A program made the translations under genes and the position numbers. A model generated the notes under the pieces. The model saw only the letters and a list, made by a program, of their open reading frames with translations, had not been told where the DNA came from and did no database searches. A DNA stretch of 64,000 bases from assembly GCA_965209055.1 (NCBI GenBank), contig OZ242374.1:3648001-3712000 (forward strand). The letters run 5' to 3'. Source of the stretch: Acidobacteriota bacterium (GTDB lineage: Bacteria; Acidobacteriota; UBA6911; RPQK01; JAJDTT01). Positions 14,805 through 63,228 of the stretch are shown in pieces; within the stretch, counting starts at the first letter, position 1, and each line of letters begins with the position of its first letter.

Positions 14805-14895
<91 letters not shown>

Positions 14896-16329: not shown

Positions 16330-16379
16330 CTCTCCTGTTCAACAAGGACAGCGTGTTGGCCGTAGTCTATTTATTGAAC

Positions 16380-16441: not shown

Positions 16442-16761
16442 GTGCAAAATGTTGATGGACGGTCCAAAAAAGGGTGAGGACGGAAGAAAAAAGAGAGGTG
16501 GAGGAAGAGGAGAATGTCCGCTACGACGACATCGGTCGTTTCTGTGGAGGACGGATTGCCGACGTCAACCACGCGGCGAGAGTACCGCCGACCGATCCAC
16601 CCGCAGTAAGCCTGCCGGACCCACCGGGCTCAGGCTGGACTTCGTCGCGGTAGGAAGAACGGAGGACGGGAGTCCGCTGCCTAGGAAAACATCAGTTTGG
16701 CGCACAATCGAGTCGAGTTGTTCGAATTACGCCTTAATTCCAACAATAGGAGAAGCAAACA

Positions 16762-17010: not shown

Positions 17011-18187
17011 GGACCGCCTTTTTGGTTTCGCGAAACAGGCCGGCTTTACAGTCAGGATGGGCTCGGACGTTGTCGTGGCAAAGGACGTCCCATGTCTGCT
17101 TGTGAACGGGAAAGTCAGCTCTTGCACTATCGAAAAATCCTTCGATTCCGAGAGTGAGAAACCGAACACACGTATAGGAGGCGCAGCCCATGGCGTGCGT
17201 ATCACGCCTGATGAAGCCCACGACGGCTGCGTCTACAATGCGGACAGGACGCCTGTCGGGAACCGCATAGGCGGGGATGGGCGGACTTGGTCGAACATTT
17301 CCATTCGGAAGGGCGGCGGAGATTGCCCAGAGGACGACGTGTCAGCATGGGACACGGTCCACCGCTATGCGAAGCAGATCGTCGGCGCCGTCTCTGCGTC
17401 TGGTTTTTACGAACCCGATTCTCTCCGGGACCAAGGTCCGTTCAAGATTCCCAATACTTTCGAGGCACGAGCGGCAATTGGCCCGGTTCAGGATCGCATA
17501 CGCGATCAGCGGATTGCGATCATCGGGTTGGGTGGAACGGGCGCCTACGTTCTGGACCTAATTGCAAAGACGCCGGTGATCGAGATACATCTCTTGGACT
17601 CCGATCACGTTGATTGGCACAATCTCATGCGTGCACCGGGGGCACCTTCTACCGACGAGATTGAGTCCCTGCGGAGGGAGACCCTGCGCAAAGTGGAATA
17701 CTATCGTTCCAAATACTCATCGTTGCGAGAAGGGATCCACTTGCACGTTTCCCGTGTGGTTGGCTCATCTGAGTTTGCTAAGTTTTTGACGGCTTATCCC
17801 ATCGATTTCGCCTTCGTGTGCATCGACCAAGTGGCCGACTCCGACTCACCTCGTCAAGATGCTGTGTACTTTGCGCTCTCGGAAGCGGAGGTACCGTTCA
17901 TAGACTCGGGTGTGAGCATAACGCTGGAGGGCCGCGCGGTCAGAGGCGTCGTGACAACGAGCGTGTATGCCGGAGGCTCTCTGGCATGGAAGGAGGCCAT
18001 ACCGAATGCTAGAGTCCGGGGCAATGTGCCTGGTTATCGCAACGTTCAACTGCCGGAAGTGAACGCGTTGGCGGCGTCACTTGCCGTGATGGAGTGGCGG
18101 CGCCGCACGGAACAGTATGTTTCGGAGTCCACTTCGTTTCTCCATAAGTTCCGCCTTGAGGCGCCGCGGATTGTCAATGTGGGCTGA
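17000..18187 (+). CDS. ThiF/E1-like adenylyltransferase with an N-terminal DUF6791-like domain
   Basis: IAIIGLGGTGAYVLDLIAKTPV.EIHL.D.D...HN..RAPGA; PFIDSG; NVQLPEVNALAA. Confidence 0.85.
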   Translation: MSRKDRLFGFAKQAGFTVRMGSDVVVAKDVPCLLVNGKVSSCTIEKSFDSESEKPNTRIGGAAHGVRITPDEAHDGCVYNADRTPVGNRIGGDGRTWSNISIRKGGGDCPEDDVSAWDTVHRYAKQIVGAVSASGFYEPDSLRDQGPFKIPNTFEARAAIGPVQDRIRDQRIAIIGLGGTGAYVLDLIAKTPVIEIHLLDSDHVDWHNLMRAPGAPSTDEIESLRRETLRKVEYYRSKYSSLREGIHLHVSRVVGSSEFAKFLTAYPIDFAFVCIDQVADSDSPRQDAVYFALSEAEVPFIDSGVSITLEGRAVRGVVTTSVYAGGSLAWKEAIPNARVRGNVPGYRNVQLPEVNALAASLAVMEWRRRTEQYVSESTSFLHKFRLEAPRIVNVG

Positions 18188-18205
18188 CGTGCAGGAATAG
18201 AATCT

Positions 18206-18622
18206 GTGAAACTCCGGCCCATTTTTGTAGACGTATTGCCCGAGTTCAACACAATCAAAGCCGGCGAGCTCTGGATCAGCCACAAGTACCGGACCGTCAA
18301 CCTGCGTTGCCCCTGCGGTTGCGGCAATTTGACGGTGCTGTCGCTCCACCCCAGCCGGTGGCATGTTCACTTCGATGGGAAGTCGGTTTCCCTGGACGGT
18401 CCCACGGGCGGGTCGGTGTGGGCGAATTCGGGCTGCGGCAGCCATTACCTCATACGGAACAACGCTGTGATTTGGGCGGACAGGATCGATCCAGGTTGTC
18501 ATTATCAATATGCCGACATCGAGCGGGCCAGACTGCTTGGCTCGAAACCGAGCCACGAGACTCTTGGTTCACGGATCGGACGTGTATGGCGCCGTCTGTT
18601 GTCAGGGTGCAGGCGCAAGTAG
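18206..18622 (+). CDS. DUF6527 family protein
   Basis: G.LWIS..YRT...CPCGCG...W...FDGKSVSL...C.SHY.IR.N.V.W pattern; follows the ThiF gene. Confidence 0.8.
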   Translation: MKLRPIFVDVLPEFNTIKAGELWISHKYRTVNLRCPCGCGNLTVLSLHPSRWHVHFDGKSVSLDGPTGGSVWANSGCGSHYLIRNNAVIWADRIDPGCHYQYADIERARLLGSKPSHETLGSRIGRVWRRLLSGCRRK

Positions 18623-18722
18623 CGCGCCTTCCACTCGGAGGCTAACCATTCGGTCCAACGAGCGCAGCCGTGCACGCAACTGGTGCCCGCGACGGAAAAT
18701 GTAAAGGGGCAAGTAGATGACG

Positions 18723-18965
18723 TCAGCCGAACCTCTTCAATCTTCTCGATTTCCCTCGCTCGCGCCTAAGCAATGAGACCATCTCCCGGGTGGAGATGTT
18801 CGCCTTGATTGAGGGAACGTTCAAGGGTGACGTGGGGGTCCCCTCCGGCACAAGAGCATTGGTCCTCCCGTCTCTTCGACGAATGTACACTTTGCCTGTT
18901 GAATCCGCCTCATCCAATACGGTGGAAAGGTCTTGTCTGGCTTCAGTGTGGGTAAAGATTTTCAT
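18723..18965 (-). CDS. Phd/YefM-type antitoxin (orphan)
   Basis: MKIFTHTEARQDLSTVLDEA...VYIRRRDGR. Confidence 0.7.
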   Translation of the reverse strand: MKIFTHTEARQDLSTVLDEADSTGKVYIRRRDGRTNALVPEGTPTSPLNVPSIKANISTREMVSLLRRERGKSRRLKRFG

Positions 18966-19037
18966 TTGAAACCTGCTGAGGCGCCGCTGGATCCGGCTGG
19001 TTTCAATTCCAGTGCCGAACACGACTGTCGGCACTAA

Positions 19038-20227
19038 GGAAGGTCTGATTAAGTCCTCATATGGGGCGAAACAGACCTTGTATCCCTCCCTTTTTCGGAT
19101 CCAGACGCTCTAACCTGGGATTTGCAACCCTGAATTGGTCTTGACCAAGCGATTGCGAGACGGTTTCCCCAGCCTCAAACACAGCCGTGCCGCATTCCGA
19201 TCAGGCGGTCACACCGGAGCGCTCGGCGATCATCAGATTGGCGAATCCCACCAGCAGATAGATCCGTTGGGTGTTTTTCGCCAGCCCGCGGTAGCGCACC
19301 TTGGCGTAGCCGAAATGCCGTTTCAGGTACCCGAACACATGTTCTGCCTTCGCCCGTACCGATGCCTTACGCCGCTCGGCCAACGCCGCCTCACTCTCCG
19401 GCGACAGCTGCCAACGCTTCCCGGGCTTCATCATCACCTGCCAATCCACCGGCCGATCTCGATTCTCCGACCGCTTCTGCACTCCCTGGTATCCGGAATC
19501 CCCCCAAACTTGCGACTCCGAGCCGTGCAGCAATTCGGAGGCCCGCGTCACGTCATGCTCGTTGGCCGGAGCCGTCACCACCGTGTGCGCCACCCCCGTC
19601 TGGGCGTCCACCCCCAGGTGGGCCTTCATTCCGAAATACCACTGTTTTCCCTTTTTCGTCTGGTGCATCTCCGGATCCCGCGCCCGATCCTTGTTTTTCG
19701 TCGAGGAAGGCGCCGCCAGGATACTCGCGTCCACGATCGTCCCCCGGCTCAGCCGCAGGCCTTGACGCTGCAGGTGAGAACCGATCTCCTCGAACAGCGC
19801 CTCCCCCAGACCATGCTCCTCCAGCCGATGACGGAACTTCAGAATCGTCGTCTCGTCCGGCAGCGGCCCTGTGAGCTTCAGACCCACGAACCGCCGCACC
19901 GACTCCACCTCGTAAAGCAGATCCTCCATCCCCGGATCGCTCAGGTTGTAAAACAACTGCACGCAGTGGATCCGCAGCATCGCCGAGAGCGGGTAGGGAC
20001 GCCGGCCCCGTCCCGCTTTCGGGTAAAACGGCTCAATCCGGGCTTCCAACTGCTCCCACGGAATCAACCCGTCCATGCGGACCAGAAACTTCTCCCGACG
20101 GGTCACCCGCTTCTTGGCGTCGTATTCCAGATCTGCGAACGTCCGTTGCGACATCGTCTTTCCCCCCACGCAGTGATGATGAAGGGATTATCGTGCAGAA
20201 CGCTGACTCGACTTAATCAGACCTTCC
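19038..20227 (-). mobile_element. IS5-family insertion sequence
   Basis: Perfect 18-bp terminal IRs GGAAGGTCTGATTAAGTC / GACTTAATCAGACCTTCC; flanks CTAA and CTAG. Confidence 0.93.
19201..20169 (-). CDS. IS5-family DDE transposase
   Basis: TIVDAS, WYFGMKAH, WGDSGY, RAKAEHVF, YRGLAKN. Confidence 0.95.
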   Translation of the reverse strand: MGGKTMSQRTFADLEYDAKKRVTRREKFLVRMDGLIPWEQLEARIEPFYPKAGRGRRPYPLSAMLRIHCVQLFYNLSDPGMEDLLYEVESVRRFVGLKLTGPLPDETTILKFRHRLEEHGLGEALFEEIGSHLQRQGLRLSRGTIVDASILAAPSSTKNKDRARDPEMHQTKKGKQWYFGMKAHLGVDAQTGVAHTVVTAPANEHDVTRASELLHGSESQVWGDSGYQGVQKRSENRDRPVDWQVMMKPGKRWQLSPESEAALAERRKASVRAKAEHVFGYLKRHFGYAKVRYRGLAKNTQRIYLLVGFANLMIAERSGVTA

Positions 20228-20590
20228 CTAGATCGCCAATGGAACAATCTTCGAGCCCTGTATGGTCCGGTCCCGGGTGAGGAGCGGTACGTTGTGGACG
20301 ATGCTGGTGGCGGCAATGAGCTCGTCCGCCGGATCGCCCTTGAAATCGAGGCGGGTTGACGTGACTGCGACGGCTAGATCGATCGGCCATACCTGCACAC
20401 GGTTCAATGCGCGCACCACTTCGCGATCATTCAGGTCAATATCCACCCGGCCCAGTTGAACCAGTTTGGCCAACTCCCATAGCACGATGGCGGATACAGA
20501 CCACCTGTTGCGTTTCAGCAGAGTCTGCTCGGACGGACGGAGTTCACCAGCGAGGGCACGGACAAGGATGTGCGTATCAAGATTGAGCAT
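20228..20590 (-). CDS. vapC: VapC PIN-domain toxin
   Basis: LNLDTHIL...SAIVLWE...DPADELIAAT...LLTRD. Confidence 0.88.
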   Translation of the reverse strand: MLNLDTHILVRALAGELRPSEQTLLKRNRWSVSAIVLWELAKLVQLGRVDIDLNDREVVRALNRVQVWPIDLAVAVTSTRLDFKGDPADELIAATSIVHNVPLLTRDRTIQGSKIVPLAI

Positions 20591-20801
20591 CGGCATCCCA
20601 GCGGAGACCGGTCGTCAGGAGGTCGCCCCGTATCTCGATCTTGTGTTCAAGGCTGCCGATCAGGTTGCCGCATTCCTGATCATAGGGAAGGACACGCGCG
20701 ACCGGTTTGCCATGCTTGGTCACGATCAAGCCCTCCGCATCCAGTCGCTCCAACAGGGCCAAGCATTGTTCCTTGAACTTTGCTGCTCCAATTGTCTTCA
20801 T
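20577..20801 (-). CDS. Phd/YefM-family antitoxin paired with VapC
   Basis: MKTIGAAKFKEQCLALLE...VTKHGKPVA. Confidence 0.88.
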   Translation of the reverse strand: MKTIGAAKFKEQCLALLERLDAEGLIVTKHGKPVARVLPYDQECGNLIGSLEHKIEIRGDLLTTGLRWDADAQS

Positions 20802-20962
20802 CGTTCAGCTCCCCGCATAGTGGACATATATTATAACCAGTCATAATAAATGTCTACTTTTCGACTTGCCTTCCATGGCTCGAATCGCGGGGAATCTGCT
20901 AGACTGACGCTCGCCGGACGCCCCGGCCCTGGCCGGCGGCGTTTCTCCGGTCTTCCAGCCGT

Positions 20963-21035
20963 GGGCCGTTAGCTCAGTCGGTAGAGCATCTGCCTTTTAA
21001 GCAGAGGGTCGCTGGTTCGATCCCAGCACGGCCCA
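20963..21035 (+). tRNA. tRNA-Lys (anticodon TTT), CCA not encoded
   Basis: GGGCCGT/ACGGCCC-A, TAGCTCAGTCGGTAGAGC, TCTGC-CTTTTAA-GCAGA, GGTTCGATCC. Confidence 0.95.
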
Positions 21036-21099
21036 CCCCCGTTTCCGAGAGAAGAAGAGGAAAGCCCTCCCGCCGGTCGCCGGGTCCGCCTTGGTGCTT

Positions 21100-49778: not shown

Positions 49779-50738
49779 ATGGCTCAGAAGAGATTCCTGA
49801 TTACAGCCCCGGTGGAAGAGATCGTGATCGAGTTGCTGGAGGCCCATGCGCCGACGGTGACGTCGCCCGCCACCGACCAGAAGACGTTGTCAGGCCTGCT
49901 CTCGGGATCGATCGGGATCGTCGCCCGGGGCGAGGCCCGGATCACCCCCGAGCTGGTGGAGGCCGCGCCCGATCTCCAAGTCGTGGGCAGGACCGGCGTC
50001 GGGTACGACAACGTGGACGTGCCGGCTCTGACCCGCCGGTCGATTCCCCTGATCATCGCCCCGGTGGGTGGGTTCTCCGTGGCCGAAGGGGCGCTGGGGA
50101 TGCTGCTCTGCCTGATCAAGAACATGCGCGCCATGGACTCGGCGGTCCGCGAAGGCAACTGGGACATCCGCTACGACGGCCTGGTCGGGGACGTGGCCGG
50201 CCATACGGTGGGCATCGCCGGGATGGGCCGGATCGGTTCCTACCTGGCCAGGCTGCTTCAGCCCTTCGAAGTGACGGTCCTGGGCTACGATCCTTACGTG
50301 GACGCCGGTCGAATGGCCGAGATCGGGGTCCGCAAGGTTGAGTTGAAGGAACTGCTGGCCCGGTCCGACTATGTCTCCTTTCACATGCTTCTGAATGACG
50401 AGACCCGGGGCATGATCGACCGGGACGCGGTCGCCGGCATGAAGCGGGGGGCGGTTCTGCTGAACCTGGCCCGCGGCGGAATCACCGACGGCCTCGATAC
50501 CCTGGCCGACGCCCTGGACGATGGGCAACTGAGCTACGTGGGACTGGACGTTTTTCCCACCGAACCTCCCGATGTCTCCCACCGGATCTTCAAACATCCC
50601 CGGTGCCTCTTCGCGCCCCACTCCCTGGGCATGAGCGAACTGGCCATGGACCGGGTCGGCCGTTCCATGGCCAACGACATGCTGGCCGTGTTGGAGGGGA
50701 ATCGACCCCAGCACTGCGTCAATCCTGAAGTCTTCTAG
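49779..50738 (+). CDS. D-isomer-specific 2-hydroxyacid (phosphoglycerate-like) dehydrogenase
   Basis: RTGVGYDNVD, GIAGMGRIG, LNLARG, LDVFPTEP, APH. Confidence 0.9.
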   Translation: MAQKRFLITAPVEEIVIELLEAHAPTVTSPATDQKTLSGLLSGSIGIVARGEARITPELVEAAPDLQVVGRTGVGYDNVDVPALTRRSIPLIIAPVGGFSVAEGALGMLLCLIKNMRAMDSAVREGNWDIRYDGLVGDVAGHTVGIAGMGRIGSYLARLLQPFEVTVLGYDPYVDAGRMAEIGVRKVELKELLARSDYVSFHMLLNDETRGMIDRDAVAGMKRGAVLLNLARGGITDGLDTLADALDDGQLSYVGLDVFPTEPPDVSHRIFKHPRCLFAPHSLGMSELAMDRVGRSMANDMLAVLEGNRPQHCVNPEVF

Positions 50739-50863
50739 GAGTGGGGGTTTTCCTATCCCGATAGCCCCACAGTCAACAACTACCAAACATTAACGTTTTC
50801 AATGGATTACCGGGTTCTTCGCCGAATCGGTAGCGTGGTTGACTCCCTATGTTTGACATCCTG

Positions 50864-50882
50864 AACAGGCAACAAACAGGCA
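50864..50882 (+). promoter_or_regulatory. Putative integrase arm-type binding sites, left end
   Basis: AACAGGCAACAAACAGGCA, identical to 63052-63070. Confidence 0.7.
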
Positions 50883-50980
50883 GCAGTATTCGAGCCTGCG
50901 ATGCCGGTCTGGTACTATTTCCTCTGCGATATAGGCCCGCCGTCACCAGATCCGCTGTGACGAAGGTCGGGCAGTCGGAC

Positions 50981-52036
50981 TCAGTTTTTTGGCCCTTCCA
51001 CGTTCGTGCGATTCGCCGAGACGGCGCGTACGTACTCAAGCACTTCTGGTCGAATCTCGTCCCACTCTTCCAGGGTCTTGAAGGAGAGAGCATAGCCACC
51101 GTGTGTCCATTCTTCGAGATTGACGGAACCACTGAGCCTGGCAAATGCACCGTCACCGCCCCATGTAATCGCCTGCGGCAATACGCTGACGCTGCACACT
51201 TCCGTTCCCAGATATCCGGCTTGCACGCCAAAGTAGGTTCTCGTGACGTTGGAATCCCCAGGCTCGCTGAGCACAAATCCGACGCTCGTGCTCCCTACCT
51301 GCTCCCAAACGCCCTGCTCTGGCAGATGTCGGCGAAGGTCGGCATGGACTCGGTCAAAGAGTTCCTTGTATCCATTGTCAACCAGGTATTTTTCCAGAGC
51401 CCGACGCTTTTCGGCGGTGGTTGCGGAAGGACGCTTTCGGATGATTTCTGTTCGTCCTGACTCCACCTCCAGTTGTCGAGCTAGGAGTCGCTCCCCTTCA
51501 CGTTGAAACCCGTGGAATGTCACCACGGAAATATCCACTGGCCCAGCAGAAATGAATCGTGCCATCCGTTCGGCTACAGCGTCCACACCCAATCCGACGA
51601 GTACCATGCGGGGCGGCAGGAGGCGTGACAGGTCGTCCCCGCCGAAGTTGTCGGCGTACCATTGCTCGAAGTCATCGATCTGTTCGATACCGTCGTTCCC
51701 GCTACGTTCGGAAATGTGCTTCGCGAGGTCGCCGGTACTCATGGCGTCCAAGTCCGAAGCGTAGTCCAAGACTTGGGTCACAGCCTCGCGGGCAAGCATC
51801 CCTCGCTTCAACTCGTAGACGACCAGACGGCCGTCCGCGTCAACGGCGAGCAGATCCAGCCAACCGGTTTGGGTGGGCGTCTGTCGTCCCACGAGACGGA
51901 GGCCCGGTTCGAGCATTTCCGGGTTGCGAACCAAAAGCTCCTCCAAGCCCAACTCGGTTTGCATCTGCTTGAGCGGTGACAGGGGCGCCACCGTCCCCGA
52001 CCCGTCGACCGCCCAGATACACAGTTCCTCAGTCAT
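50981..52036 (-). CDS. Endonuclease NucS-domain (PD-(D/E)xK) protein
   Basis: LEELL..NPEML..GL.LVGRQ...GWLDLLAVD.DG.LVVYELKRG...AVTQVLDYA. Confidence 0.8.
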   Translation of the reverse strand: MTEELCIWAVDGSGTVAPLSPLKQMQTELGLEELLVRNPEMLEPGLRLVGRQTPTQTGWLDLLAVDADGRLVVYELKRGMLAREAVTQVLDYASDLDAMSTGDLAKHISERSGNDGIEQIDDFEQWYADNFGGDDLSRLLPPRMVLVGLGVDAVAERMARFISAGPVDISVVTFHGFQREGERLLARQLEVESGRTEIIRKRPSATTAEKRRALEKYLVDNGYKELFDRVHADLRRHLPEQGVWEQVGSTSVGFVLSEPGDSNVTRTYFGVQAGYLGTEVCSVSVLPQAITWGGDGAFARLSGSVNLEEWTHGGYALSFKTLEEWDEIRPEVLEYVRAVSANRTNVEGPKN

Positions 52037-52440
52037 TTCTGCGTCCGATATCTCAATCGGCTCATCAAGCTACACGATTGTCGCCGTCCGATTCAAACGC
52101 GCCGTTCCAACGGGGGATACGGCCCTGCTCAACCCCTACGGAGGGGTGACGGCAGCACTGAAGCGGGCGGTCGAGTTGCAACCAGCGGCGGAAAGTCGCT
52201 CCTTCCAGGTCGTGATTGACGGTGAACGCACTCGGCAATCGCAAGGGCCTTTGGAGGCTCGTTTCGGCTGTGCCTCAAGGGGGTCTCGCGCCCGATCCGG
52301 GATGTGAATGGGACAAGGGGGGTGGATTCACAAAAAGCGGTCCCGGTGATTCACAAACGCGCTGTCCCCGATCTTTTTTCCTTTCAGTCAGTTACGGCCC
52401 CATTTCTGGCCACCGGGTGGCCGCACGGGGAAAATGGAGG

Positions 52441-52541
52441 TGGACGGGAGCGACCCCCCCTTTTTCCTGCCCGGTGCGGGCGCGGGGGTGTTGCGCAATT
52501 CACATTTGCGCAGCACCCCCTGGGGGGGTCGCTCCCGTCCA
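52441..52541. other. Nested inverted-repeat structure (candidate origin or structured RNA)
   Basis: Perfect 20-bp IR TGGACGGGAGCGACCCCCCC / GGGGGGGTCGCTCCCGTCCA enclosing two further hairpins. Confidence 0.6.
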
Positions 52542-53145
52542 AATTATCCCTGGCGGGAAGGCAGTAAGATGATCCCATGAAGCCATGAAGTGGCGTTATG
52601 CAGGTATCATTCCGGCGGATTAGGCGGACATTGTCTGGCGAGCCGAATACGATCCCATATTCCGGCCTGGAGACCATCCGGTGCTGGACCTGATCGCCGT
52701 TCACGATCGTGCCGGGTATACGGTGACCCGGATTTGGCACTCTATGGCTCCCGATATCGCCGTCCTGCTCGGTGGGCAAAATTGCTTGTCCGTCTGACGC
52801 GTCTATGTCCAAATGAACCGCAGGTCGATAGATCGAAGGATCCTGCTTACGTGGCCGACCCGGTTCCGTTAGATCGTCGTCGGCGAAGCGCACCATCCGG
52901 CGAAGCCGTAGGAAGTCTCTCAACTCTCTTGGTTTTTCATTCCCGAGTGGTGCCTCTATACTGAATGCTGATCTTTCAGGACTGGGGGTTCTGGCAAGAC
53001 ATCGTGCATCGGAGTACGATCCGCTCGCATAGCCGGATGTGTTTGTCAAAAAGGAGTTGCAGACCAACCGAGGCAGCCTGCACACTTCTGCACCGCACTC
53101 CGCATCCCGGTCAGCGCCTCAGAAAACCATTGCCCGCATATCCAC

Positions 53146-55431
53146 ATGGCCATCACAGTCTTTAACGACAGCTCGTACAGCCTGTCTGCCTTGGTCGAGG
53201 CGATCGGTAGGGGCGAGATTGCTCTGCCCGACATCCAGCGACCCTTCCGCTGGAAGGCGACCAAGGTCCGAGACCTCTTCGACTCGATGTACCGTGGCTT
53301 CCCCGTTGGCCACCTGATCTTCTGGGCAACCGGTGCCGAGATGGGTGCCCGCCGAATCGGCACGCATGCCCACGAGGCCGCGCCGCGCCTCATGATCGTG
53401 GATGGCCAGCAGCGGCTCACCAGCCTCTACGCCGTGCTCACGGGGAGCGAAGTGCTCCGTGAGGATTACACTGCTTCGCGGATTCGTATCGCGTTTCGCC
53501 CCCGAGACGGCAGCTTCGAGGTAGCCGATGCCGCAGTGGTAAGGAACCCGGAGTTCATCGCCGACATCTCGATTCTATGGGCTGGCGGCAGTTTGCTAAA
53601 GAAGGTGCGGGAGTTCCTCATGCGCCTGGAAGAAAGCAAGGGTGATCTTGGCGAGGACCGGCGCGTCCGCATTGAATCGGCCATTGAAAGACTCTACAAC
53701 CTCCGAAACTATCCTTTTAAGGCCATGGAGGTGGCTTCAACGGCAGGTGAGGAACAGGTCGCGGACATCTTCGTGCGCATCAATAGCAAGGGGGATAGAC
53801 TCGGCCAAGCCGACTTCATTCTCACACTGATGTCCGTCTGGTGGGAGGAGGGCCGCAAGCAACTGGAGAAATTCGCCCGGAACGCTAGGCTCCGGCCTCC
53901 TGGGCCGTCTCCCGCAAATCCGTTCATCGACCCGTCCGCGGACCAGATGCTACGCGTGGTTTCGGGACTTGCCCTCCGGCGCGCCCGCCTTCGATACGTC
54001 TATCAGGTGCTTCGGGGCAAAGACCTTGAGACCGGCGAGATTTCGGCTCAGATCCGGGAGAAGCAGTTCGCCACATTGCGGGAGGCTCAGGCGGAGACCC
54101 TTTCGCTGACTAATTGGCACGAGTTTCTTAAGGCAGTCCGTCGGGCCGGCTACCGAAGCCGAGCCATGATCAGTTCGGAGAACAATCTGATGTTCTCCTA
54201 CCTGATGTACCTGATTGGCCATCGAGACTACCGGATCAACCGCAGGACCCTTCGCGAAGCCATCGCTCAATGGTTCTTCATGACCTCACTTACTGGCCGA
54301 TACACGGGCAACTTCGAGAGCCGAGTTGAGCAGGATCTCCGCCGTGTCGCCGAGGCGAGGTCCGGTGATGAGTTTGTGGCAATGCTGAACGGGATCATCG
54401 ACACGACGCTCACCATGGACTATTGGACGATCCAACTCCCCAGTTCGCTTGAGACTTCCTCAGCCTTCGGTCCGACGGTGTTCGGATACCACGCAAGCCT
54501 TGTTCTCCTCAATGCGCAGCCGCTGTTTTCCCCGCTGCAATTGAGTGAGCTTTTGGATCCATCGACGCACGCTCCTCGCTCGGCCGTCGAGCGTCACCAT
54601 CTTTTTCCCAAAGCGTACCTGACACGGATTGGCATCGATCGCACAGTACAGCGAAATCAGATCGCCAACTACGCCTTCGTCGAATGGCCCGACAACGCGG
54701 AGATCGGCGACTCACGGCCAAGTGAGTATTTCCCTCCCCTCTTCGCCAAGCTTACGGCGCGGCAGCGAGAACGAGCACGGTTCTGGCATGCGCTGCCGGA
54801 GGGTTGGGAACAGATGGATTATCGGGAGTTCCTTCAGCAACGGCGGGTGCTCATCGCTGATGTCGTGCGAGCGGCATTCAACAGGCTCCGGACCGGCGAG
54901 CCTCCCGAGGAGGAGGAACCGCTGCCGCTGCCGCCTGGTGGCCACGCATGGTCCATTGACGATCTCCTCGCCGAAATGGAAACCGAGCGGGTCGAGTTCA
55001 AGTCGTCTGCCTACTACAGCTACAAGCCGAACGTACCGGAGAGAGTAATCACGGAGTCCGTGCTCAAGACCATCGCGGGCTTCCTGAACGCCGGAGGTGG
55101 CATTCTCGCGGTCGGCATTGCGGATGACGGCGAGATCCTCGGCATCCAACCGGACCTGGACATGAAGAACATGGACGGGGACCGGTATGTGAACTCACTC
55201 ACAAACCTGATCGAGCGCTCGCTCGGACCACTTGCTTCCACGATGGCGAAGATTCAGTTGCAGGCTGTCGATGGCGTGCAAGTCGCCATGGTACACGTGA
55301 CCCCATCTCCTGAGCCGATCTATGCCAAGGTCTCCAAACGTGACCGGGCCTTCTTCGTTCGGGTGAACAACTCGACCCGGATCCTTGAAGGGGCCGATCT
55401 TGTCGGATATGTCAGACAACGCTGGGCCTAG
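53146..55431 (+). CDS. GmrSD-like (DUF262 + HNH-like) protein fused to a C-terminal Schlafen AlbA_2 domain
   Basis: PDIQRPFRW, DGQQRLT, FVRIN (DUF262); ERHHLFPK...NQIANY (HNH-like); ETERVEFKSS...AGFLNAGGG.L.VG..DDG (AlbA_2). Confidence 0.85.
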   Translation: MAITVFNDSSYSLSALVEAIGRGEIALPDIQRPFRWKATKVRDLFDSMYRGFPVGHLIFWATGAEMGARRIGTHAHEAAPRLMIVDGQQRLTSLYAVLTGSEVLREDYTASRIRIAFRPRDGSFEVADAAVVRNPEFIADISILWAGGSLLKKVREFLMRLEESKGDLGEDRRVRIESAIERLYNLRNYPFKAMEVASTAGEEQVADIFVRINSKGDRLGQADFILTLMSVWWEEGRKQLEKFARNARLRPPGPSPANPFIDPSADQMLRVVSGLALRRARLRYVYQVLRGKDLETGEISAQIREKQFATLREAQAETLSLTNWHEFLKAVRRAGYRSRAMISSENNLMFSYLMYLIGHRDYRINRRTLREAIAQWFFMTSLTGRYTGNFESRVEQDLRRVAEARSGDEFVAMLNGIIDTTLTMDYWTIQLPSSLETSSAFGPTVFGYHASLVLLNAQPLFSPLQLSELLDPSTHAPRSAVERHHLFPKAYLTRIGIDRTVQRNQIANYAFVEWPDNAEIGDSRPSEYFPPLFAKLTARQRERARFWHALPEGWEQMDYREFLQQRRVLIADVVRAAFNRLRTGEPPEEEEPLPLPPGGHAWSIDDLLAEMETERVEFKSSAYYSYKPNVPERVITESVLKTIAGFLNAGGGILAVGIADDGEILGIQPDLDMKNMDGDRYVNSLTNLIERSLGPLASTMAKIQLQAVDGVQVAMVHVTPSPEPIYAKVSKRDRAFFVRVNNSTRILEGADLVGYVRQRWA

Positions 55432-55439
55432 GCACTTAG

Positions 55440-56628
55440 GGAAGGTCTGAACAAGTCGATTCAAGGGACGTGAGAGCCGTTATTGTTTCGGCTTTGCGGT
55501 GTCCAAACCTTCATTATGAGGAGTACCACCCTGGCAAGGCTCTGGGTGCCCCCATTCTCAGACTGATTCCCCGAATCTCGACGCACCTCTCCCGCGCCCG
55601 GATCAGGCGTTCACGCCAGAGCGCTCGGCGATCATCAGATTGGCGAACCCCACCAGCAAATAGATCCGTTGGGTGTTTTTCGCCAGCCCCCGGTAGCGCA
55701 CCTTCGCGTAGCCGAAATGCCGTTTCAGGTACCCGAATACATGTTCTGCCTTGGCCCGAACCGACGCTTTGCGCCGCTCGGCCAACGCCGCCTCACTCTC
55801 CGGTGGCAGCCGCCAACGCTTCCCCGGCTTCATCATCACCTGCCAATCCACCGGCCGATCTCGATTCTCCGACCGCTTTCCCACTCCCTGGTATCCCGAA
55901 TCCCCCCAAACTTGAGACTCCGAGCCGTGCAGCAACTCACCGGCTCGCGTCACGTCATGCTCGTTAGCCGGCGCCGTCACCACCGTGTGCGCCACCCCCG
56001 TCTGGGCGTCCACCCCCAGGTGGGCCTTCATTCCGAAATACCACTGTTTTCCCTTCTTCGTCTGATGCATCTCCGGGTCCCGCGCCCCCTCCCTGTTCTT
56101 GGTCGAGGAAGGCGCCGCCAGGATACTCGCGTCCACGATCGTCCCCCGGCTCAGCCGCAGGCCTTGCCGCTGCAGGTGAGAACCGATCTCCTCGAACAGC
56201 GCCTCCCCCAGACCATGCTCCTCCAGCCGATGACGGAATTTCAGAATCGTCGTCTCGTCCGGCAGCGGCCCCGTGAGCTTCAGGCCCACGAACCGCCGCA
56301 CCGACTCCACCTCATAGAGCAGATCCTCCATCCCCGGATCGCTCAGGTTGTAAAACAGCTGCACGCAGTGGATCCGAAGCATCGTCGAGAGCGGGTAGGG
56401 ACGCCGTCCCCGTCCCGCTTTCGGGTAAACGGGCCGAATCCGGGCTTCCAACTGCTCCCATGGAATCAACCGGTCCATCCGGGCCAGAAATCTCTCCCGA
56501 CGGGTCACCCGCTTCTTGCCGTCGTATTCCAGATCTGCGAACGTTCGTTGCGACATCATCTATCCTCCATGCAGTGATGATGGAAGAATTATCGTGCAGA
56601 ACGCTGACTCGACTTAATCAGACCTTCC
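55440..56628 (-). mobile_element. IS5-family insertion sequence with 4-bp TSD TTAG
   Basis: IRs GGAAGGTCTGAACAAGTC / GACTTAATCAGACCTTCC; TTAG at 55436-55439 and 56629-56632. Confidence 0.94.
55603..56559 (-). CDS. IS5-family DDE transposase
   Basis: Highly similar to 19201..20169. Confidence 0.95.
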   Translation of the reverse strand: MMSQRTFADLEYDGKKRVTRRERFLARMDRLIPWEQLEARIRPVYPKAGRGRRPYPLSTMLRIHCVQLFYNLSDPGMEDLLYEVESVRRFVGLKLTGPLPDETTILKFRHRLEEHGLGEALFEEIGSHLQRQGLRLSRGTIVDASILAAPSSTKNREGARDPEMHQTKKGKQWYFGMKAHLGVDAQTGVAHTVVTAPANEHDVTRAGELLHGSESQVWGDSGYQGVGKRSENRDRPVDWQVMMKPGKRWRLPPESEAALAERRKASVRAKAEHVFGYLKRHFGYAKVRYRGLAKNTQRIYLLVGFANLMIAERSGVNA

Positions 56629-56632
56629 TTAG

Positions 56633-56980
56633 TCCCATCGAGTGCCAGACCGTGCATGCCCTAGAACTCATGGATCGCGACGCTGCTTGGTCCGGCCGGG
56701 ATTTACTTTCTTGGTTGCCGAAGACGCATGCCACAAGCAACAGGGGAAGATTTCCGTACGGGAAACGGTTGCCGCCACCCGCGATCACATAGTGCGTGAA
56801 TGGCCCATTGACCCGCTTGTACTCCTTCCGTCGGCGTGGGTTGGTGCGCGGTAGAGTAGACAGCGCCCGTAGCCGGGCCACCCAACCGAGGTCCAGTTCC
56901 GCCTTGCGGCCCGTGACCAAATGATCGATCTGGCGAGCGGAGGTCCAATGGCGGAAGGACTGCGGCGGTAGTAACTGCCA
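56633..56980 (-). pseudogene. Remnant of a plasmid replication protein (RepA_C-like)
   Basis: DLGWVARL.ALSTLPRTNP...Y.R.NGP...AGGGN.FPYGNLP.LL fits the RepA_C N-terminal pattern, then breaks down; limits approximate. Confidence 0.6.
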
Positions 56981-57210
56981 GGCGTTCCACCCGAACGCGG
57001 CCTTCATCTTCCCGTACTCGATCTTCTGCTTCTTGGAAGGGTTAATGTTGTCAGTTTCCCATGAGGGACTAGCACCCACAGCGGGGAGCGCTGAGCGCTT
57101 GGGAGTCCTCCCGTGGGACAACGGGACCGCAGCATGACGGGGACAAACATCTGGAGGCGTATACTTGCCTTCGCCTACGGGATTTCAGACGCTCTCAAGC
57201 AGCCTCTCTA

Positions 57211-58128
57211 CTAGTCTGAATGGTGCCCGCGCCAGACCAACTGCTTGTCGGTCGTCGCATCGATGCAATTTTTCAAACGTGGCGGCTTGTCTGGAGATGC
57301 AAACGCCCCATCAAGTTGCTTTTGGGTTAAGTTGGTCGCGGGAGGCCTACTACGGGGATCCGCTTCGTCGAGCTCGGCGAATCGGGTGCCAGACAGATTG
57401 GTCCCATCAAGATTGGCGTTCTCAAGGTTAGAGCCTGACAGGTCCGCGTCTACGAGAGACGCACCGGACAGGATCGCGTTAGATAGGTCGGTTTTCATGA
57501 GGAACGCCCCATCAAGGTTTATCTTTGCAAGAGATCCATAACGAAGGTGGACGCCGCGTAGGTCCAGTCTGAAATTGGCGTCCCGTTCAAGCTCGATACG
57601 TTTCTCTGAGCGTCTGCGGAGCAAGTCCATGACGGCCTGCACGTCTTCGCGCACCCATTGCCGATGATCATGTTCTTCCCCTCTTTCCGCAGCAATCTCT
57701 TTGGCAGCTTCCTCAGAGCCGCTAGCAAATTGAGCGTCATCCGTTAGGATGCCGCCGTTTGTCAGAGCAATGTTCTCAACGGATTTCCCGACCGGATGAC
57801 GAGCGAACGCGCAGAATAGGCGCATGACCTCGATGTGGTATTGCTCTGGGTGTTCCCCGGAGAGGCGTTCGAGAGCATACAAGCCGCCGAGCCGGACCGG
57901 GAGTTTCTCACTGCCCAGCATTTCCGAGCATTTCTGATAGCGCTCGTTCAAAAGCCCACGCTGCGCTGTTTCGGCTTGGCGTTCAGCTATCCTGCTGCGC
58001 CATATGGCAAGGGGCAGAGCAATTCCCGCTGCGATAACCAGACCCAAATTGCGGATGATCGTACTATAGGATTCCCAGTTACTCAGCGAATCCGTAAGCT
58101 CGTCGCACATGCTTCTTTCTGCCCCCAA
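57211..58128 (-). CDS. Membrane-anchored pentapeptide-repeat protein
   Basis: TM segment, then ERYQK..EMLGS...VRLGGLYALERL; A(D/N)LxG pentapeptide repeats. Confidence 0.85.
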   Translation of the reverse strand: MGAERSMCDELTDSLSNWESYSTIIRNLGLVIAAGIALPLAIWRSRIAERQAETAQRGLLNERYQKCSEMLGSEKLPVRLGGLYALERLSGEHPEQYHIEVMRLFCAFARHPVGKSVENIALTNGGILTDDAQFASGSEEAAKEIAAERGEEHDHRQWVREDVQAVMDLLRRRSEKRIELERDANFRLDLRGVHLRYGSLAKINLDGAFLMKTDLSNAILSGASLVDADLSGSNLENANLDGTNLSGTRFAELDEADPRSRPPATNLTQKQLDGAFASPDKPPRLKNCIDATTDKQLVWRGHHSD

Positions 58129-58148
58129 GCCAAGGATACAAAAGTGGC

Positions 58149-59777
58149 TCAGTCAGGCTTCATCGGCAGGTGATTCTGCTTCTTCGATGAAGTGGGTCTT
58201 ACTCGCTTTGCTCGCTTGAATGTCACGTCGGCGGCTTGGGGGTAATCCACGCTCATTCCGCCCAAGAGATCCTCAATCGTGAGTAGTTGAATGCGAGGGT
58301 GATTCCCCCATGGAGATTTGTAGAAACCTGCCGAGGCTGCTTCTCGACGCATCGGTGCGGTCGGAGGATTCAGGGACAGGAAGACTCCTATCTGGGCCTT
58401 CTCACGGTTCACAACACCCACGAGGTCACGGATCTGGGACACTGTGACGTGTCCGGCCTTCACCGAGAAGATGATCTGCTTCGTCTTCCCATTCCGGCCC
58501 TCGTCATGGAAATAGAGCCGACCATCAATACCCTGGTCGGCTCCTTTTTTCTGCTCAATGGGACGAGCACCGGCCAAGCCGAGAGCCCACCACTGAAACT
58601 GATAGGGGTCCTGCCCCGCTAGAGTGGCGGCATCTTGGAGACTGATCGGTTCACCGATGACGTCAAATCGACAGTTCTTGCCGAAGGAATCCTGGAGTCG
58701 ATGACGAATCAGAGAGATGGCTAGATGGGTGATGTCGATCCCGATCCAGCGTCTATCGAGTTTCTGAGCCGCCGCAATGGTCGTCCCGCAACCACAGAAG
58801 GGGTCGAGCACAATTTCGCCCTCGTCAGTACTCGAAAGAATAATTCGATCAAGCAACAATTGAGGCTTTTGCGTCGGGTAGCCCAGACGTTCGGCAGCGA
58901 GATTGTGCAATGGACGAATGTCCGTCCATACGTCTTGCAAGGGAACGCCTGGCGAGTCTTCCGGGTATTGCTTCAATCGAGGCATCCCGCCCTTCTTCTT
59001 TGGCCAGTGAACACGATCCTTTCGGTCAAGTTCATCTAGCGTAGACGGGGGTGATCTCCAATGCCGTCCCTTTGCCGTGACGTCAATCCCGCGCCATGGC
59101 AGACCTGTTTCGCCATATCGGATGCCTGCGCCGGTCATATCGGCCCGCTTCCACCGTCTGCCATCCGGGTCAGTCTGATCGAAGAATGTTTCTATGTAAT
59201 CAGTGTCGTATTCCTGAAAGACTCGATTCCACTTGTACTTGTTCGTTTTCCCATAGAATAAGATCACGTCATGCACAGGTCCGTATCGCTTCGCACTGCT
59301 GTGGGCGCTCGTGCGTTTCCACACAATTTCGCTCAAGAAACGTTCTGGTCCGAAGACGGCATCGAGCAAGAGTTTTAAAGAATGGCTCGCCGTTGGGTCG
59401 CAGTGCAGGTATAGACTCCCCGTCAGTTTCAGCACCCTTCGAAGTTCCAAGAGACGAGGTGCCATCATCGACAGGTAGGCCAACATGTCGTTGGTCCCCA
59501 TGAACTTCCTGAAGGCGATTAATGCCTCGGCTACTCTGCCGCCAGTTTCTACCGTCTCTTGATAGGCCCTGGCCGCAGTTTCGTCCCACTGCCACGTGTC
59601 CTCGAACGCCTTAATCTGGGAAGCCGACTGTGATCCGTCTTTCTCTTGAAACAGGACGTTGTAGGTCTGGTTGCTTTTGAAAGGAGGATCTAGGTAGACG
59701 AGGTCAACGCTTTTGTCCCGCAGGTAGCGCCGGAGAATATCCAAATTGTCGCCATAGTACAGAGTGTTGGATGCCAT
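58149..59777 (-). CDS. N6/N4 DNA methyltransferase (beta class) fused to an Mrr-like endonuclease domain
   Basis: YLDPPF, YPTQKP, LDPFCGCGT; C-terminal DQGIDG...SVKAG. Confidence 0.9.
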   Translation of the reverse strand: MASNTLYYGDNLDILRRYLRDKSVDLVYLDPPFKSNQTYNVLFQEKDGSQSASQIKAFEDTWQWDETAARAYQETVETGGRVAEALIAFRKFMGTNDMLAYLSMMAPRLLELRRVLKLTGSLYLHCDPTASHSLKLLLDAVFGPERFLSEIVWKRTSAHSSAKRYGPVHDVILFYGKTNKYKWNRVFQEYDTDYIETFFDQTDPDGRRWKRADMTGAGIRYGETGLPWRGIDVTAKGRHWRSPPSTLDELDRKDRVHWPKKKGGMPRLKQYPEDSPGVPLQDVWTDIRPLHNLAAERLGYPTQKPQLLLDRIILSSTDEGEIVLDPFCGCGTTIAAAQKLDRRWIGIDITHLAISLIRHRLQDSFGKNCRFDVIGEPISLQDAATLAGQDPYQFQWWALGLAGARPIEQKKGADQGIDGRLYFHDEGRNGKTKQIIFSVKAGHVTVSQIRDLVGVVNREKAQIGVFLSLNPPTAPMRREAASAGFYKSPWGNHPRIQLLTIEDLLGGMSVDYPQAADVTFKRAKRVRPTSSKKQNHLPMKPD

Positions 59778-59850
59778 AGTTCACCAGTATCCCATGAGGG
59801 GCAGACACCCAGAGAAGGAGGGATGAGAGTTCCGCTGCCGACTGAAGCCT

Positions 59851-60107
59851 ATGAACCGGCACGCGCCGGACACGCGGGAATCGGAGAAATTTAGGGATGA
59901 TTTCCGCGATAAGGCCATCGGCACGATTCGCAAATACGCCGATCTGAACATCATCAAAGCAAGAGTTGTACTCGATACCACTGGACGCCGCCGCCGCGGC
60001 TTTGCCTTGGAGGATTTGAACACCTACTCCGTTTCTCTGGAGCCGTGGTACGATTCGCCCCACGGCGAAGAACCCGGATCCAGAAAGGAGGAGATGCATG
60101 GGCATCT
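59851..60107 (+). CDS. Putative excisionase / MerR-like HTH protein (exon 1; stop TAA at 62021-62023 after splicing)
   Basis: GTIRKYADLNIIKAR...GRRRR.F.LEDL resembles winged-helix Xis; directly upstream of int; N-terminus uncertain. Confidence 0.5.
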
Positions 60108-63095
60108 GTGCGCCAGGCTAACTGGCACAAGACAAGCGGTGAAAGTCCGCTGAAACGAAGGACTAACCATCCACGTTTCTCCGCGAGCCGTGCGTTGGCA
60201 CCCGTGAGGGTGTCGGCGAAGCGTCGGCAGCGGCGCGTGTGGGCGGGGCTATTGAGCATCGAAACATGCAGGAACGGAAGTGCCGAGGCTGTGGATGCGG
60301 TCGAAGGCAACACCGGCTGGACCGGGAAGGTGAGGGACAGACGGACACCGCGGTGTCTAGGAACCCAAGCACGCACGTACGTCTTGTGTCGGGACCTGGG
60401 AGGGCTTCATTTCGCTCCGGTGGTCGAGCCAGGGCCGCATGAGAAAGGAGCAAACCGAACCTCATGATGGACGAAACGAAGCAGTCGGATTCATCCATAG
60501 TAGCGATGAAGCGGGCGAACAAAGAGGGGGAACCCTCGGCGGAGCCGGTGGAGCGAAGGGATGAAGCCAAGGGGAATTCGGTGTGCCAAAGCACGCGCCG
60601 GACGCAGAGTCGGGGGAGCGTGTCCCAAGCGGCGGACCGGATACGGCGAGCCATAGCGAGAAACCCCAAGGAGCGACTGACCGCGCTGTTGCACCATATC
60701 ACCGTGGAGGCCTTGCGCCGCGCCTACCTCGGACTGAGGAAGGATGCGGCCCCGGGAATCGACGGAGTGCGGTGGGAGGAGTACGGGGCGAAGCTGGAAG
60801 AGCGACTGCTGGACCTGCATCGCCGCGTGCACCGGGGCGCGTACCGGGCGCCTCCCGTCCGGCGGGTGAGAATCCCCAAGCCGGACGGACGGACACGACC
60901 GCTCGGGATCGCGGCACTGGAGGACAAGATCCTCCAGAAGGCCGTGGTGGACGAGCTCCTGACGCCGATCTATGAGGCGGAGTTTCTCGGGCTCAGCTAC
61001 GGGTTCCGGCCCGGACGGAAGGCGCATGACGCGCTGGATGCCCTGGCCTACGGGATCGAACGGCGGAAAGTCAATTGGATCGTGGACGCGGACATCCGAA
61101 CGTTTTTCGATGCGATCGACCGGGACTGGATGATCCGGTTCGTGGAACATCGGATCGGGGACCGGCGGGTGTTGCGGCTCCTGACCAAGTGGCTGAACGC
61201 GGGAGTGATGGAAGAAGGGACCCGGTCGGACACGGGGAAAGGGACGCCTCAGGGCTCCATCGTCTCCCCGGTGCTGGCAAATGTGTACCTGCACTACGTG
61301 CTGGACCAGTGGTTCCATCGGAAATGGCGTCCACGAGTCCCGAAAGGCGAGGCGATCCTGGTGCGGTATGCGGACGACTTCGTGGCCGGATTCGAGAAGC
61401 GGGCAGACGCGGAGCGGTTTCTCCGAGACCTGGGGGAACGGTGCGCCGAGTTCGGACTGGAACTGCACCCGGAAAAGACGCGACTGGTGGAGTTCGGGCG
61501 ATTTGCGGCAGCGGATCGGCGGCGACGCGGGGCGCGGAAACCGGAAACGTTCGATTTCCTGGGCTTCACGCACTACTGTGCGAAGACCCGGAAGGGGCGG
61601 TTCCGGCTGGGGCGGAAACCGAGTGCGAAGCGGATGCAACGAACCCTGAAACGGGTGGGGGAGAGGCTGCGAAGACGCCGGCACGACGACATCTGGGAGG
61701 TCGGGAAATGGTTGGGCCGCGTATTGAACGGCTGGCTCAACTACTTTGCGGTCCCCGGAAGTGGACGATGGCTGCAAGGCTTTCGATATCGGCTGCGAGA
61801 GCAGTGGATGCGGGTGTTGCGCCGCCGGTCGCAGCGAGCGCGCTTCACGTGGAGACGGCTCCGAAAGATGGCCAAGCTTCTCTGGCCGTCGGTGACGATT
61901 CGCCACCCGTGGCCGAGCGAACGGCTCACCGTAACGACCCAAGGCAGGAGCCGTGTGCCCTAACGGGCACGCACGGATCTGTGCGGGGGGCGGAGGGAAA
62001 CCGCCGTTCCTACCGCGACATAAGGTGAAGGATCGCCGGGGGAGACGACGGTACGTCGTCAGCAAGTACTGGCCGAACGGATCCGGTCGGCTCCGAATGT
62101 ACGCCCCCAACTACCGGAGCGCGCAAGCGCTTCAAACACGAATCGAGTCCAGTATCCTGGACGGCACCTGGAAGCGGCTCAAGCAGGAACTCGCCGGTGG
62201 GAAACGCAAGATCTGGACGGTCCGGAGTTTCTACGAGCGTTTTTTCGAGGAGTATTGCAAACCTCGTCTACGCTGCTTGCGCCGCTACGCACTCTCGTTC
62301 AAGAGCCTCAACGCCATGCTGGGGAACATTCCCCTGAAGGAGTTCCAGCGCAAGGACCTCCACCGCTACGTCGCGAAACGGAAGGGACAGGTCCAGCCAG
62401 CCACGGTGAACCGAGACATTGCGGCCCTCAGCAAGCTGTTTTCCTACGCGCTGGAGTGCGGGGAAGTGGACACGCATCCGCTGGTTCGATTCCCCAAACT
62501 GAAGGAGCCCAAGAAGGTCTTCCGGCCTTTGACGGTCCAACAGTTCCGCGACCTGGTCGAGGCGGTGGACAACCCTTCCCTGCAAGCCATGATCGCAGTG
62601 ATCGGTGAAACGGGGATTCGCAAGGGAGAGGGATTGTCGCTCACATGGAGTCGGGTGGATTTGGGCCGCCGGATGTTGTGGGTGGAGTTCACCAAGGACG
62701 ACGAACCGAGAGAGATTCCGCTCTCGAAGTACGCCGCCCGATATCTGGCGGGGCTGGTTCGTTACCTGAACACACCGTATGTGTTCGTCAACAGCCGGAC
62801 CGGGACAAGATGGGTGAATCCAGACAAGTCTCTACGTCGCGCTGCCGAGCGGGTGGGGTTGAAGGTTGGGTTTCACGATCTGAGGCGATTCCGCTGTAGC
62901 CATTGGCTGATGCAGGGTGTGGACGTGAGAACGGTGCAGAAGCTGATGGGACACTCATCGATCAGCACGACGATGCGCTACGCGGGCTACGTCAGTTCGC
63001 ATGCGCTCCAGAGCATTCGAGAGGCACAGGCTAACGAAGACTCACAAACGCAACAGGCAACAAACAGGCAACGGGTCGGAATGAAGGGACAATGA
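60098..63095 (+). CDS. int: Tyrosine recombinase/integrase split by the intron (exons 60098-60107 and 62020-63095)
   Basis: RBS AGGAGGAG; spliced ATG GGC ATC T|AT AAG gives MGIYKVKDRRG...; catalytic TGIRKGE, FHDLRR, MGHS, TMRY. Confidence 0.9.
60108..62019 (+). mobile_element. Group II intron (IEP without En domain, class E-like by inference)
   Basis: 5' GTGCG; domain V GAGCCGTGTGCCCTAACGGGCACGCACGGATC; domain VI ending in AC; EBS1 GGATGC and EBS2 CATGCA complementary to exon 1. Confidence 0.92.
60464..61963 (+). CDS. ltrA: Group II intron reverse transcriptase/maturase
   Basis: APGIDG, IPKPDGRTRPLGI, SYGFRP, GTPQG, VRYADD, FDFLGF, maturase X domain. Confidence 0.96.
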   Translation: MMDETKQSDSSIVAMKRANKEGEPSAEPVERRDEAKGNSVCQSTRRTQSRGSVSQAADRIRRAIARNPKERLTALLHHITVEALRRAYLGLRKDAAPGIDGVRWEEYGAKLEERLLDLHRRVHRGAYRAPPVRRVRIPKPDGRTRPLGIAALEDKILQKAVVDELLTPIYEAEFLGLSYGFRPGRKAHDALDALAYGIERRKVNWIVDADIRTFFDAIDRDWMIRFVEHRIGDRRVLRLLTKWLNAGVMEEGTRSDTGKGTPQGSIVSPVLANVYLHYVLDQWFHRKWRPRVPKGEAILVRYADDFVAGFEKRADAERFLRDLGERCAEFGLELHPEKTRLVEFGRFAAADRRRRGARKPETFDFLGFTHYCAKTRKGRFRLGRKPSAKRMQRTLKRVGERLRRRRHDDIWEVGKWLGRVLNGWLNYFAVPGSGRWLQGFRYRLREQWMRVLRRRSQRARFTWRRLRKMAKLLWPSVTIRHPWPSERLTVTTQGRSRVP

Positions 63096-63127
63096 ATGGA
63101 GGGGATATTTGGGATAACCGGTTGATA
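63052..63127. promoter_or_regulatory. Right-end arm-type sites plus IHF consensus site
   Basis: AACAGGCAACAAACAGGCAAC (63052-63072); TAACCGGTTGATA (63115-63127), whose reverse complement TATCAACCGGTTA matches WATCAANNNNTTR. Confidence 0.65.
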
Positions 63128-63228
63128 ATTAAGGATCTAGATCGTAGATCATTTGGACCGAGCGACGGATTTCCTACCCCCACTCCCCAGGGGATAGGAA
63201 AGTCCCCCCACTAATGTCCCCTCCTACC

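Follow-up and report, generated by a model that had tools for sequence, protein, structure and literature searches.

A group II intron in the start of a multi-copy tyrosine integrase gene of an Acidobacteriota genome, probably placed there by recent retrohoming

In a 64,000-nucleotide stretch of DNA from an Acidobacteriota bacterium (GenBank assembly GCA_965209055.1, contig OZ242374.1, C1:3648001-3712000 of the 6.08-Mb genome; hereafter designated the window), the gene for a tyrosine integrase, Int, is interrupted ten nucleotides after its ATG by a group II intron, at a site where the gene overlaps an upstream, Xis-like open reading frame (ORF). This position raises the question of whether the intron serves as a switch, its splicing gating the excision and integration of the island that encodes the integrase, as an initial annotation of the window had supposed, or whether it is a mobile intron that has landed in a gene of another mobile element. 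We found a purpose-built switch to be unlikely, and the locus looks like selfish DNA nested in selfish DNA: with a probability of about 0.75, a group II intron, recently active and without an endonuclease (En) domain, has retrohomed into the start of a multi-copy tyrosine integrase gene. Coordinates below are those of the window, on its plus strand, unless given for the genome.

The boundaries of the intron are fixed by an uninterrupted copy of the same integrative element (hereafter designated the twin). Thus, the window segments 50736–60107 and 62020–63184 are 100% identical to the genome segment 2820838–2810302 (minus strand), where the two blocks abut with no intron between them. This exact empty site places the 1,912-nt intron at 60108–62019 to the base, precisely where the initial annotation had drawn it, and its ends, GTGCG at 60108 and AC at 62018–62019, fit the 5' GUGYG / 3' AY rule. 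In Rfam, domains D1–D4 were matched by RF02005 at 60142–60365 (160.7 bits against a gathering threshold of 49, the whole model, 1–225, being covered), and domains D5 and D6 by RF00029 at 61946–62019, a bare pass at 41 bits against 40. The RF00029 alignment leaves UA at 62011–62012 unpaired, and the bulged A62012 is a candidate branch point at a distance of 8 nt to the 3' splice site. The intron-encoded protein (60464–61963, 499 residues) comprises a reverse transcriptase (RT), with YADD at residue 302, and the maturase domain X; it was matched by RVT_1 (E 2.8e-36) and by the group II RT/maturase family TIGR04416 (363.8 bits against a cut-off of 300), the match to GIIM alone lying under its cut-off (19.7 versus 23). 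No HNH/En domain was detected in it by Pfam, which returned RVT_1 and GIIM only, the C-terminus lying about 30 residues past the GIIM match. Together with the protein families and the empty site of the twin, the predicted structure confirms the element as an intact mobile group II intron. As to its class, endonuclease-containing introns (ML, CL, classes A and B) were ruled out by the absence of the C-terminal HNH/En domain, and group IIC (class C) by a 6-bp covarying EBS2-IBS2 pairing, described below, and by RF02005 being the best D1 model. The candidates are classes D, E, and F or another En-minus class; no class name came from a literature search by Rfam name, a search of PDB with the intron-encoded protein, or a tblastn search of plasmids, in which plasmid-borne ltrA genes showed 55–59% identity to the protein over 97–100% of its length.

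The fit between intron and target was examined at all three guide positions. The exon-binding sites EBS1 (GGATGC, 60293–60298, in a D1 hairpin loop) and EBS2 (CATGCA, 60265–60270), both located in unpaired positions of the Rfam D1 consensus, form 6 bp each with the intron-binding sites IBS1 (GCATCT, 60102–60107, with one G-U pair) and IBS2 (TGCATG, 60095–60100, perfectly), and U60358, as EBS3, forms 1 bp with IBS3, A62020, the first base of the 3' exon. The first two pairings, and the view that the site is cognate, had been put forward from the window letters by the initial annotation and are upheld by covariation; the third was not on its list and is added here. Five related introns of congeneric genomes were aligned over their first 330 nt; three are full-length (88–89% identity), and the other two are ORF-less derivatives of 643 nt. 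EBS1 of the relatives reads AGTCGC, AGTCCC, AACCCC, or GGGTGC, each complementary to the last six exon bases (one case using two G-U pairs), the covariation thus extending to five of five, and EBS2 covaries fully in two relatives and at 5/6 positions in one, with only 4 bp formed in two. Among the six introns, only one of the 330 columns, that of position 60358, varies in step with the first base of the 3' exon, with U-A here, A-T in three relatives, and G-C in two. These results show that the guide letters follow their exons in the relatives, so that the site is cognate beyond chance.

The interrupted gene belongs to a large family. Its exon 1, ATG GGC ATC T at 60098–60107, was assigned from the window letters, the paralogs, and the homologs, and joins exon 2 (62020–63095) to encode a tyrosine recombinase of 361 residues. 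The ORF at 62022–63095 matches Phage_integrase PF00589 (E 1.9e-26; 93.3 bits versus a cut-off of 27.1), with Int_N and SAM_1 slightly under their cut-offs, and HxxR and a C-terminal Y are visible in the translation. The genome contains 26 full-length integrase paralogs with 84–100% nucleotide identity to the window copy, and all 26 keep ATGGGCATCT, followed by AYAAGG, and have open frames of 360–403 residues with the start MGIYKVKDRRGR. Across 320 paralog pairs, the ratio of nonsynonymous to synonymous substitution rates (dN/dS) has a median of 0.13 and a maximum of 0.23; the low ratios and the open frames indicate that the 26 copies are working genes under purifying selection. In other genomes, seven of nine loci, including two homologs at 71% identity, start with MGIYK(V/A)KDR; one of the remaining two, at 51% identity, starts with MAINRVKYRKG, and in the other the alignment opens at residue 40. 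The MGIYK start in all paralogs and in seven of the nine foreign loci shows that the start upstream of the intron is real and that exon 1 is needed, as had been expected of intron-less homologs (MGIYKV). Of 18 foreign integrase loci retrieved, the 11 with a start at residue 1 all lack an intron at this site, and relatives in closed genomes have the same multi-copy integrase family with empty sites. Two internal starts on the unspliced RNA, GTG codons at 62025 and at 61953, the latter overlapping the 3' end of the intron-encoded ORF, were considered and are unsupported, neither having a visible Shine-Dalgarno sequence.

The intron lies directly 3' of a hairpin (AGATGC-ATGG-GCATCT, 60092–60107) that holds the integrase start codon in the 4-nt loop of a 6-bp stem. 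The accompanying Shine-Dalgarno stretch (AAAGGAGGAG, 60084–60093), the GGAGG core of which ends 6 nt before the ATG, is kept in 26/26 paralogs. Minimum-free-energy folding of the uninterrupted leader of the twin includes this hairpin (z −2.5), and the 1–2-nt insertions found in four paralogs are all in the loop, leaving the stem intact. The hairpin may control translation of the integrase. Each integrase copy is accompanied by a conserved leader of about 60–200 nt and a tail of about 90 nt. The single contig of the assembly ends inside one copy (genome 6076051–6077182), and it is probably within the integrase repeat that the "closed" assembly is broken or circularised.

The distribution of the intron among these paralogs carries the argument for recent mobility. 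The genome holds three 1,912-nt copies that are 100% identical and no other full copy, the only further traces being a degenerate fragment of 200 nt and a distant RT. All three are inserted at the same site in integrase paralogs, where the host exons differ by 9–13%, and exon 2 of the other two hosts is only 87–89% identical to that of the window. Identical introns in hosts so diverged indicate recent movement between the paralogs, not copying together with them. Identical flanks beyond the intron in all three copies, which would be a sign of duplication or gene conversion of integrase-intron blocks, were not seen, and the intron-less copy nearest to the occupied one at genome 5305001–5308100 differs from it at 3 sites in 60 nt upstream and at 12 in 300 nt downstream. 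The 23 other sites are empty, 19 with perfect IBS1, IBS2, and IBS3 and 4 with loop indels that change IBS2. One occupied copy, at genome 784165, is itself a mosaic: the 2,992 nt upstream of its site are 100% identical to an intron-less copy (genome 786078–789069 versus 2829223–2832214), and downstream of the site the identity of the same pair is only 97% over 1,166 nt, which points to a recombination event between paralogs at the intron position or close to it.

Presumably, the intron, equipped with an RT, a maturase, and the three guides, retrohomes into a 14-nt target at the integrase start. The integrase family, whose 26 copies each lie at the right-hand end of one small integrative element, would provide a conserved, multi-copy, and non-essential landing site. 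Since the intron-encoded protein is devoid of an En domain, priming is expected at replication forks, as reported for En-minus introns (PMC4424553), and the spread between paralogs would proceed by reverse splicing into single-stranded DNA at the forks. The insertion would make Int of the window copy dependent on splicing, and silence it if splicing is poor, as for RmInt1, while the cell would keep making an identical Int from the twin.

Several points weigh against this explanation. The orientation bias expected of fork priming is not significant, 3/3 occupied and 13/23 empty sites being co-directional with replication as judged by a noisy GC skew (hypergeometric P ~0.2, by our own arithmetic). 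Retrohoming is deduced from the pattern of distribution, and both the splicing and the silencing of this locus are predictions. Furthermore, the intron has every predicted feature of a splice-competent ribozyme, with which efficient splicing and a harmless or regulatory intron would also be consistent. Lastly, the genome is that of an uncultured organism, assembled from a metagenome. With an estimated contamination of 7.4% and one integrase copy cut by the contig end, such an assembly could harbor mis-assembled repeats that mimic the twins or the three intron copies; this is, however, most improbable, as each copy has unique flanks and its own exon variants and the closed genomes of relatives likewise contain the multi-copy family with empty sites. 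No conclusion drawn here depends on the unpublished genome G016.

The initial annotation had laid weight on the overlap with the upstream ORF, where one splice would restore both the integrase frame and the upstream stop codon. Its frame arithmetic agrees entirely with the window letters. Joining exon 1 to 62020 keeps the integrase frame (MGIYK), with the intron falling in codon 4, and the upstream ORF (59851–60107) passes in the overlapping frame through a leucine codon ending at A62020 into TAA at 62021–62023. In the unspliced RNA, the integrase frame is open for just 7 codons, with the upstream ORF extending to 60153 (100 residues), so that the claim of an extended upstream product and no integrase also holds for the frames, whereas the identification of that product as Xis is not supported, its N-terminal helix-turn-helix (HTH) part having been replaced. 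Foreign relatives carry upstream of the integrase a gene of about 95 residues that overlaps the integrase start and ends in TAA at the same position, and seven of nine aligned Xis relatives match HTH_17 (best E 4.1e-11); the shared position of this stop codon shows the overlap of xis with int to be ancestral. The window ORF aligns to them only from KAIGTIRK on, over the C-terminal ~60 residues past the first HTH helix, and its first ~20 residues are unrelated to their conserved N-terminal segment. No protein family was matched by it even at E values up to 10, neither HTH_17 nor the excisionase family TIGR01764 being found, and the best xis copy in the genome is sub-threshold both on HTH_17 and on TIGR01764 "excise"; an alignment profile of Xis searched against PDB gave nothing significant (best E 0.07). 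A full uninterrupted xis occurs in only 1/26 copies, and another keeps its full length but contains an internal stop; those remaining are variously truncated at the 5' side or contain stops. The TAA is kept in 6/26 copies, and the other 20, including the occupied copy at 784165, read CAA. Judging from these copies, the dual restoration by one splice is a by-product of an old overlap and no conserved design.

These features bear directly on the proposal that Int and a correctly terminated Xis are produced only upon splicing, which would thereby control excision and integration, as with Ll.LtrB in ltrB. The insertion in codon 4, the mere 7 Int codons available from unspliced RNA, and the apparent splice competence of the intron are all consistent with such a gate, for which Ll.LtrB, whose splicing controls relaxase expression and conjugation, provides a precedent (PMC1874635, PMC7293003). 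The proposal is nevertheless improbable. An identical Int is encoded without an intron on the twin, which rules out splicing as the only gate on mobility, and 22 further paralogs are intact, only 3/26 copies carrying the intron; the splice-gated island of the initial annotation is undercut by these 23 intron-less genes, one of them on an element otherwise identical. Moreover, the window xis lacks the HTH N-terminus, the TAA to be restored is missing in 20/26 copies, one of which is occupied, and the three introns, being 100% identical, represent insertions too recent for evolved regulation.

RNA evidence for splicing was sought in contigs from 4 of 24 runs, compared with the occupied copy with unique exons. 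Short reads do not distinguish the window copy from its twin. Two runs behave as DNA of this genome; two cross-intron joints found in them have sides of just 22–29 letters and match intron-less paralogs, and the intron contig reaches just 30 letters into each exon, under the threshold for bridging. The other two, sponge metatranscriptomes, cover the intron partially and with differing letters, one contig entering another 3' exon, which shows that these matches stem from relatives. The junction 15-mer GGCATCTATAAGGTG, proposed as the diagnostic of splicing, exists as DNA at four intron-less copies, and a test based on it is therefore confounded.

The closest parallel to the window intron is RmInt1 in ISRm2011-2 of Sinorhizobium meliloti (class D / IIB3). 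Both have an RT and a maturase and no endonuclease, recognize their targets by EBS1, EBS2, and EBS3, and are expected to move at forks (PMC1802570, PMC8914252, PMC3035460, PMC5894124), and both are found in a mobile-element gene with many copies, some of them occupied and others empty within a single genome. The host genes differ, that of RmInt1 encoding a DDE transposase and that described here a tyrosine integrase of an integrative element. RmInt1 is reported to splice in ISRm2011-2 at only 0.07% in vivo (PMC3035460), and its insertion is thought to block the spread of this insertion sequence (IS) (PMC5894124). By analogy, poor splicing of the present intron might inactivate each integrase that it hits, its spread progressively silencing the element family as a parasite of a parasite. 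In favor of such a brake, besides RmInt1, are the report that Ll.LtrB lowers the expression of its host relaxase (PMC6003770), the location of related introns in att-like hairpins of this integrase system (see below), and the activity of the element family: four pairs of copies have identical or near-identical integrase regions, and in two of these pairs the elements are 100% identical (10.5 kb and 2.8 kb), a pattern suggestive of integration in recent bursts. Against it, the poor splicing is an assumption, and with 3/26 sites occupied the present effect on the family would be small. The brake also overlaps with the retrohoming explanation, from which it differs only in the degree of silencing, and we regard it as unlikely.

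The window intron resembles Ll.LtrB (IIA; in the ltrB relaxase gene of lactococcal conjugative elements) in being inserted in a key mobility gene, the product of which needs splicing. Ll.LtrB differs in that it contains an endonuclease domain and interrupts a single-copy gene; in the present genome, by contrast, the interrupted gene has an identical counterpart without the intron. Introns in mobility genes of other elements are thus already known, in a relaxase (Ll.LtrB) and in a transposase (RmInt1), in line with the general statement of the initial annotation, and the locus opens no new category of biology. A published intron in a tyrosine integrase was not found in the literature searched, which included few subscription journals, offers no proof of absence, and yielded only integron attC cases and unrelated papers. 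The value of the locus lies in a clean natural experiment, consisting of two 10.5-kb elements identical but for the intron, 19 more empty perfect targets, and sister introns with other guides and targets in congeners. This set suits the measurement of the cost of the intron to its host element, of the choice of an En-less intron among equivalent sites, and of natural guide retargeting.

A further aspect of target choice emerges from the ends of the host element and from the related introns. The element with the interrupted integrase gene, its last gene, spans 50736–63184 (10,537 bp without the intron). At its left end, attL contains the heptamer TTTCCTA (50749–50755), a putative crossover core, and the right end (63096–63184) consists of a tRNA-like fragment followed by the same heptamer (63170–63176) and CCCCCACT. 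The outermost segments, 50736–50760 and 63160–63184, resemble the halves of a repetitive extragenic palindrome (REP)-like hairpin, composed of GGAG, stem, loop, stem, and a core shared by both ends (TTTCCTA in the window element and 15 nt in a sister pair). The sister elements of 2,796 bp (genome 4495126–4497921 and 6054121–6056916) are bounded by a 15-nt direct repeat forming a REP-like hairpin. More than 100 hairpins of this type occur in the genome. Moreover, the window element is absent from the orthologous intergenic site in all six congeneric loci that hold both flanks, and these empty sites have REP-like hairpins directly after the stop codon of a dehydrogenase gene. REP-like hairpins thus appear to serve the integrase as att sites.

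The introns related to the window intron (88–89% identity) are present in 7 copies each in two congeneric genomes (G002 and G007). Flanks were read for 14 introns, namely 3 and 11 of 12 further copies, the twelfth having no 5' anchor, and 13/14 related full-length introns sit in the loops of REP-like hairpins. Two such sites match attB sequences reconstructed from the ends of elements in the present genome; in a further congener (G004), the intron site is identical over about 30 nt to the attB deduced for the window element. The ORF-less derivatives of 643 nt, which join the 5' ~540 nt to the 3' ~90 nt, occur as multiple copies in both G004 and G005; those at loci in G005 and G006 target another hairpin, to which their EBS1 and EBS2 are matched. 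As far as these sequences tell, the intron lineage appears to be tied to this integrase system, and the intron of the present genome appears to have been retargeted in all three guides to the hairpin holding the integrase start codon. Homing to hairpins or ends of recombination sites is also reported for the IIC-attC introns of integrons and for RmInt2 at the inverted repeats of ISRm17 (PMC4424553, PMC5894124), which the 13/14 congeneric relatives resemble. Unlike the IIC-attC introns, the window intron has an EBS2 and lies in a coding sequence. As a tentative extension of the retrohoming explanation, the lineage might be specialised on one integrase system, using attB-like hairpin loops in the congeners and the start-codon hairpin here, as a hyperparasite that silences defence-carrying elements copy by copy or imposes on them a dependence on splicing. 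If so, the lineage would represent, outside group IIC, the equivalent of the integron introns that target attC.

The tRNA-like fragment at the right end of the element (63120–63176), also present at the same place in the other 25 integrase copies, resembles a tRNA D-arm and anticodon arm and ends at the element right end; it received no tRNA call from ARAGORN and may be what is left of an ancestral tRNA attachment site. The three tRNA genes noted in the window (Ser-CGA, Ser-GGA, and Lys-TTT, at 11470–21038) are far from the element, with none at its ends. The cargo of the element (50981–59777) comprises a NucS_C-like nuclease, a protein with GmrSD_N and Schlafen AlbA_2 domains, a pentapeptide protein, and an N6/N4 DNA methylase-Mrr fusion, and it looks like a small defence island. 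An IS encoding a DDE transposase (DDE_Tnp_1) is inserted among these genes.

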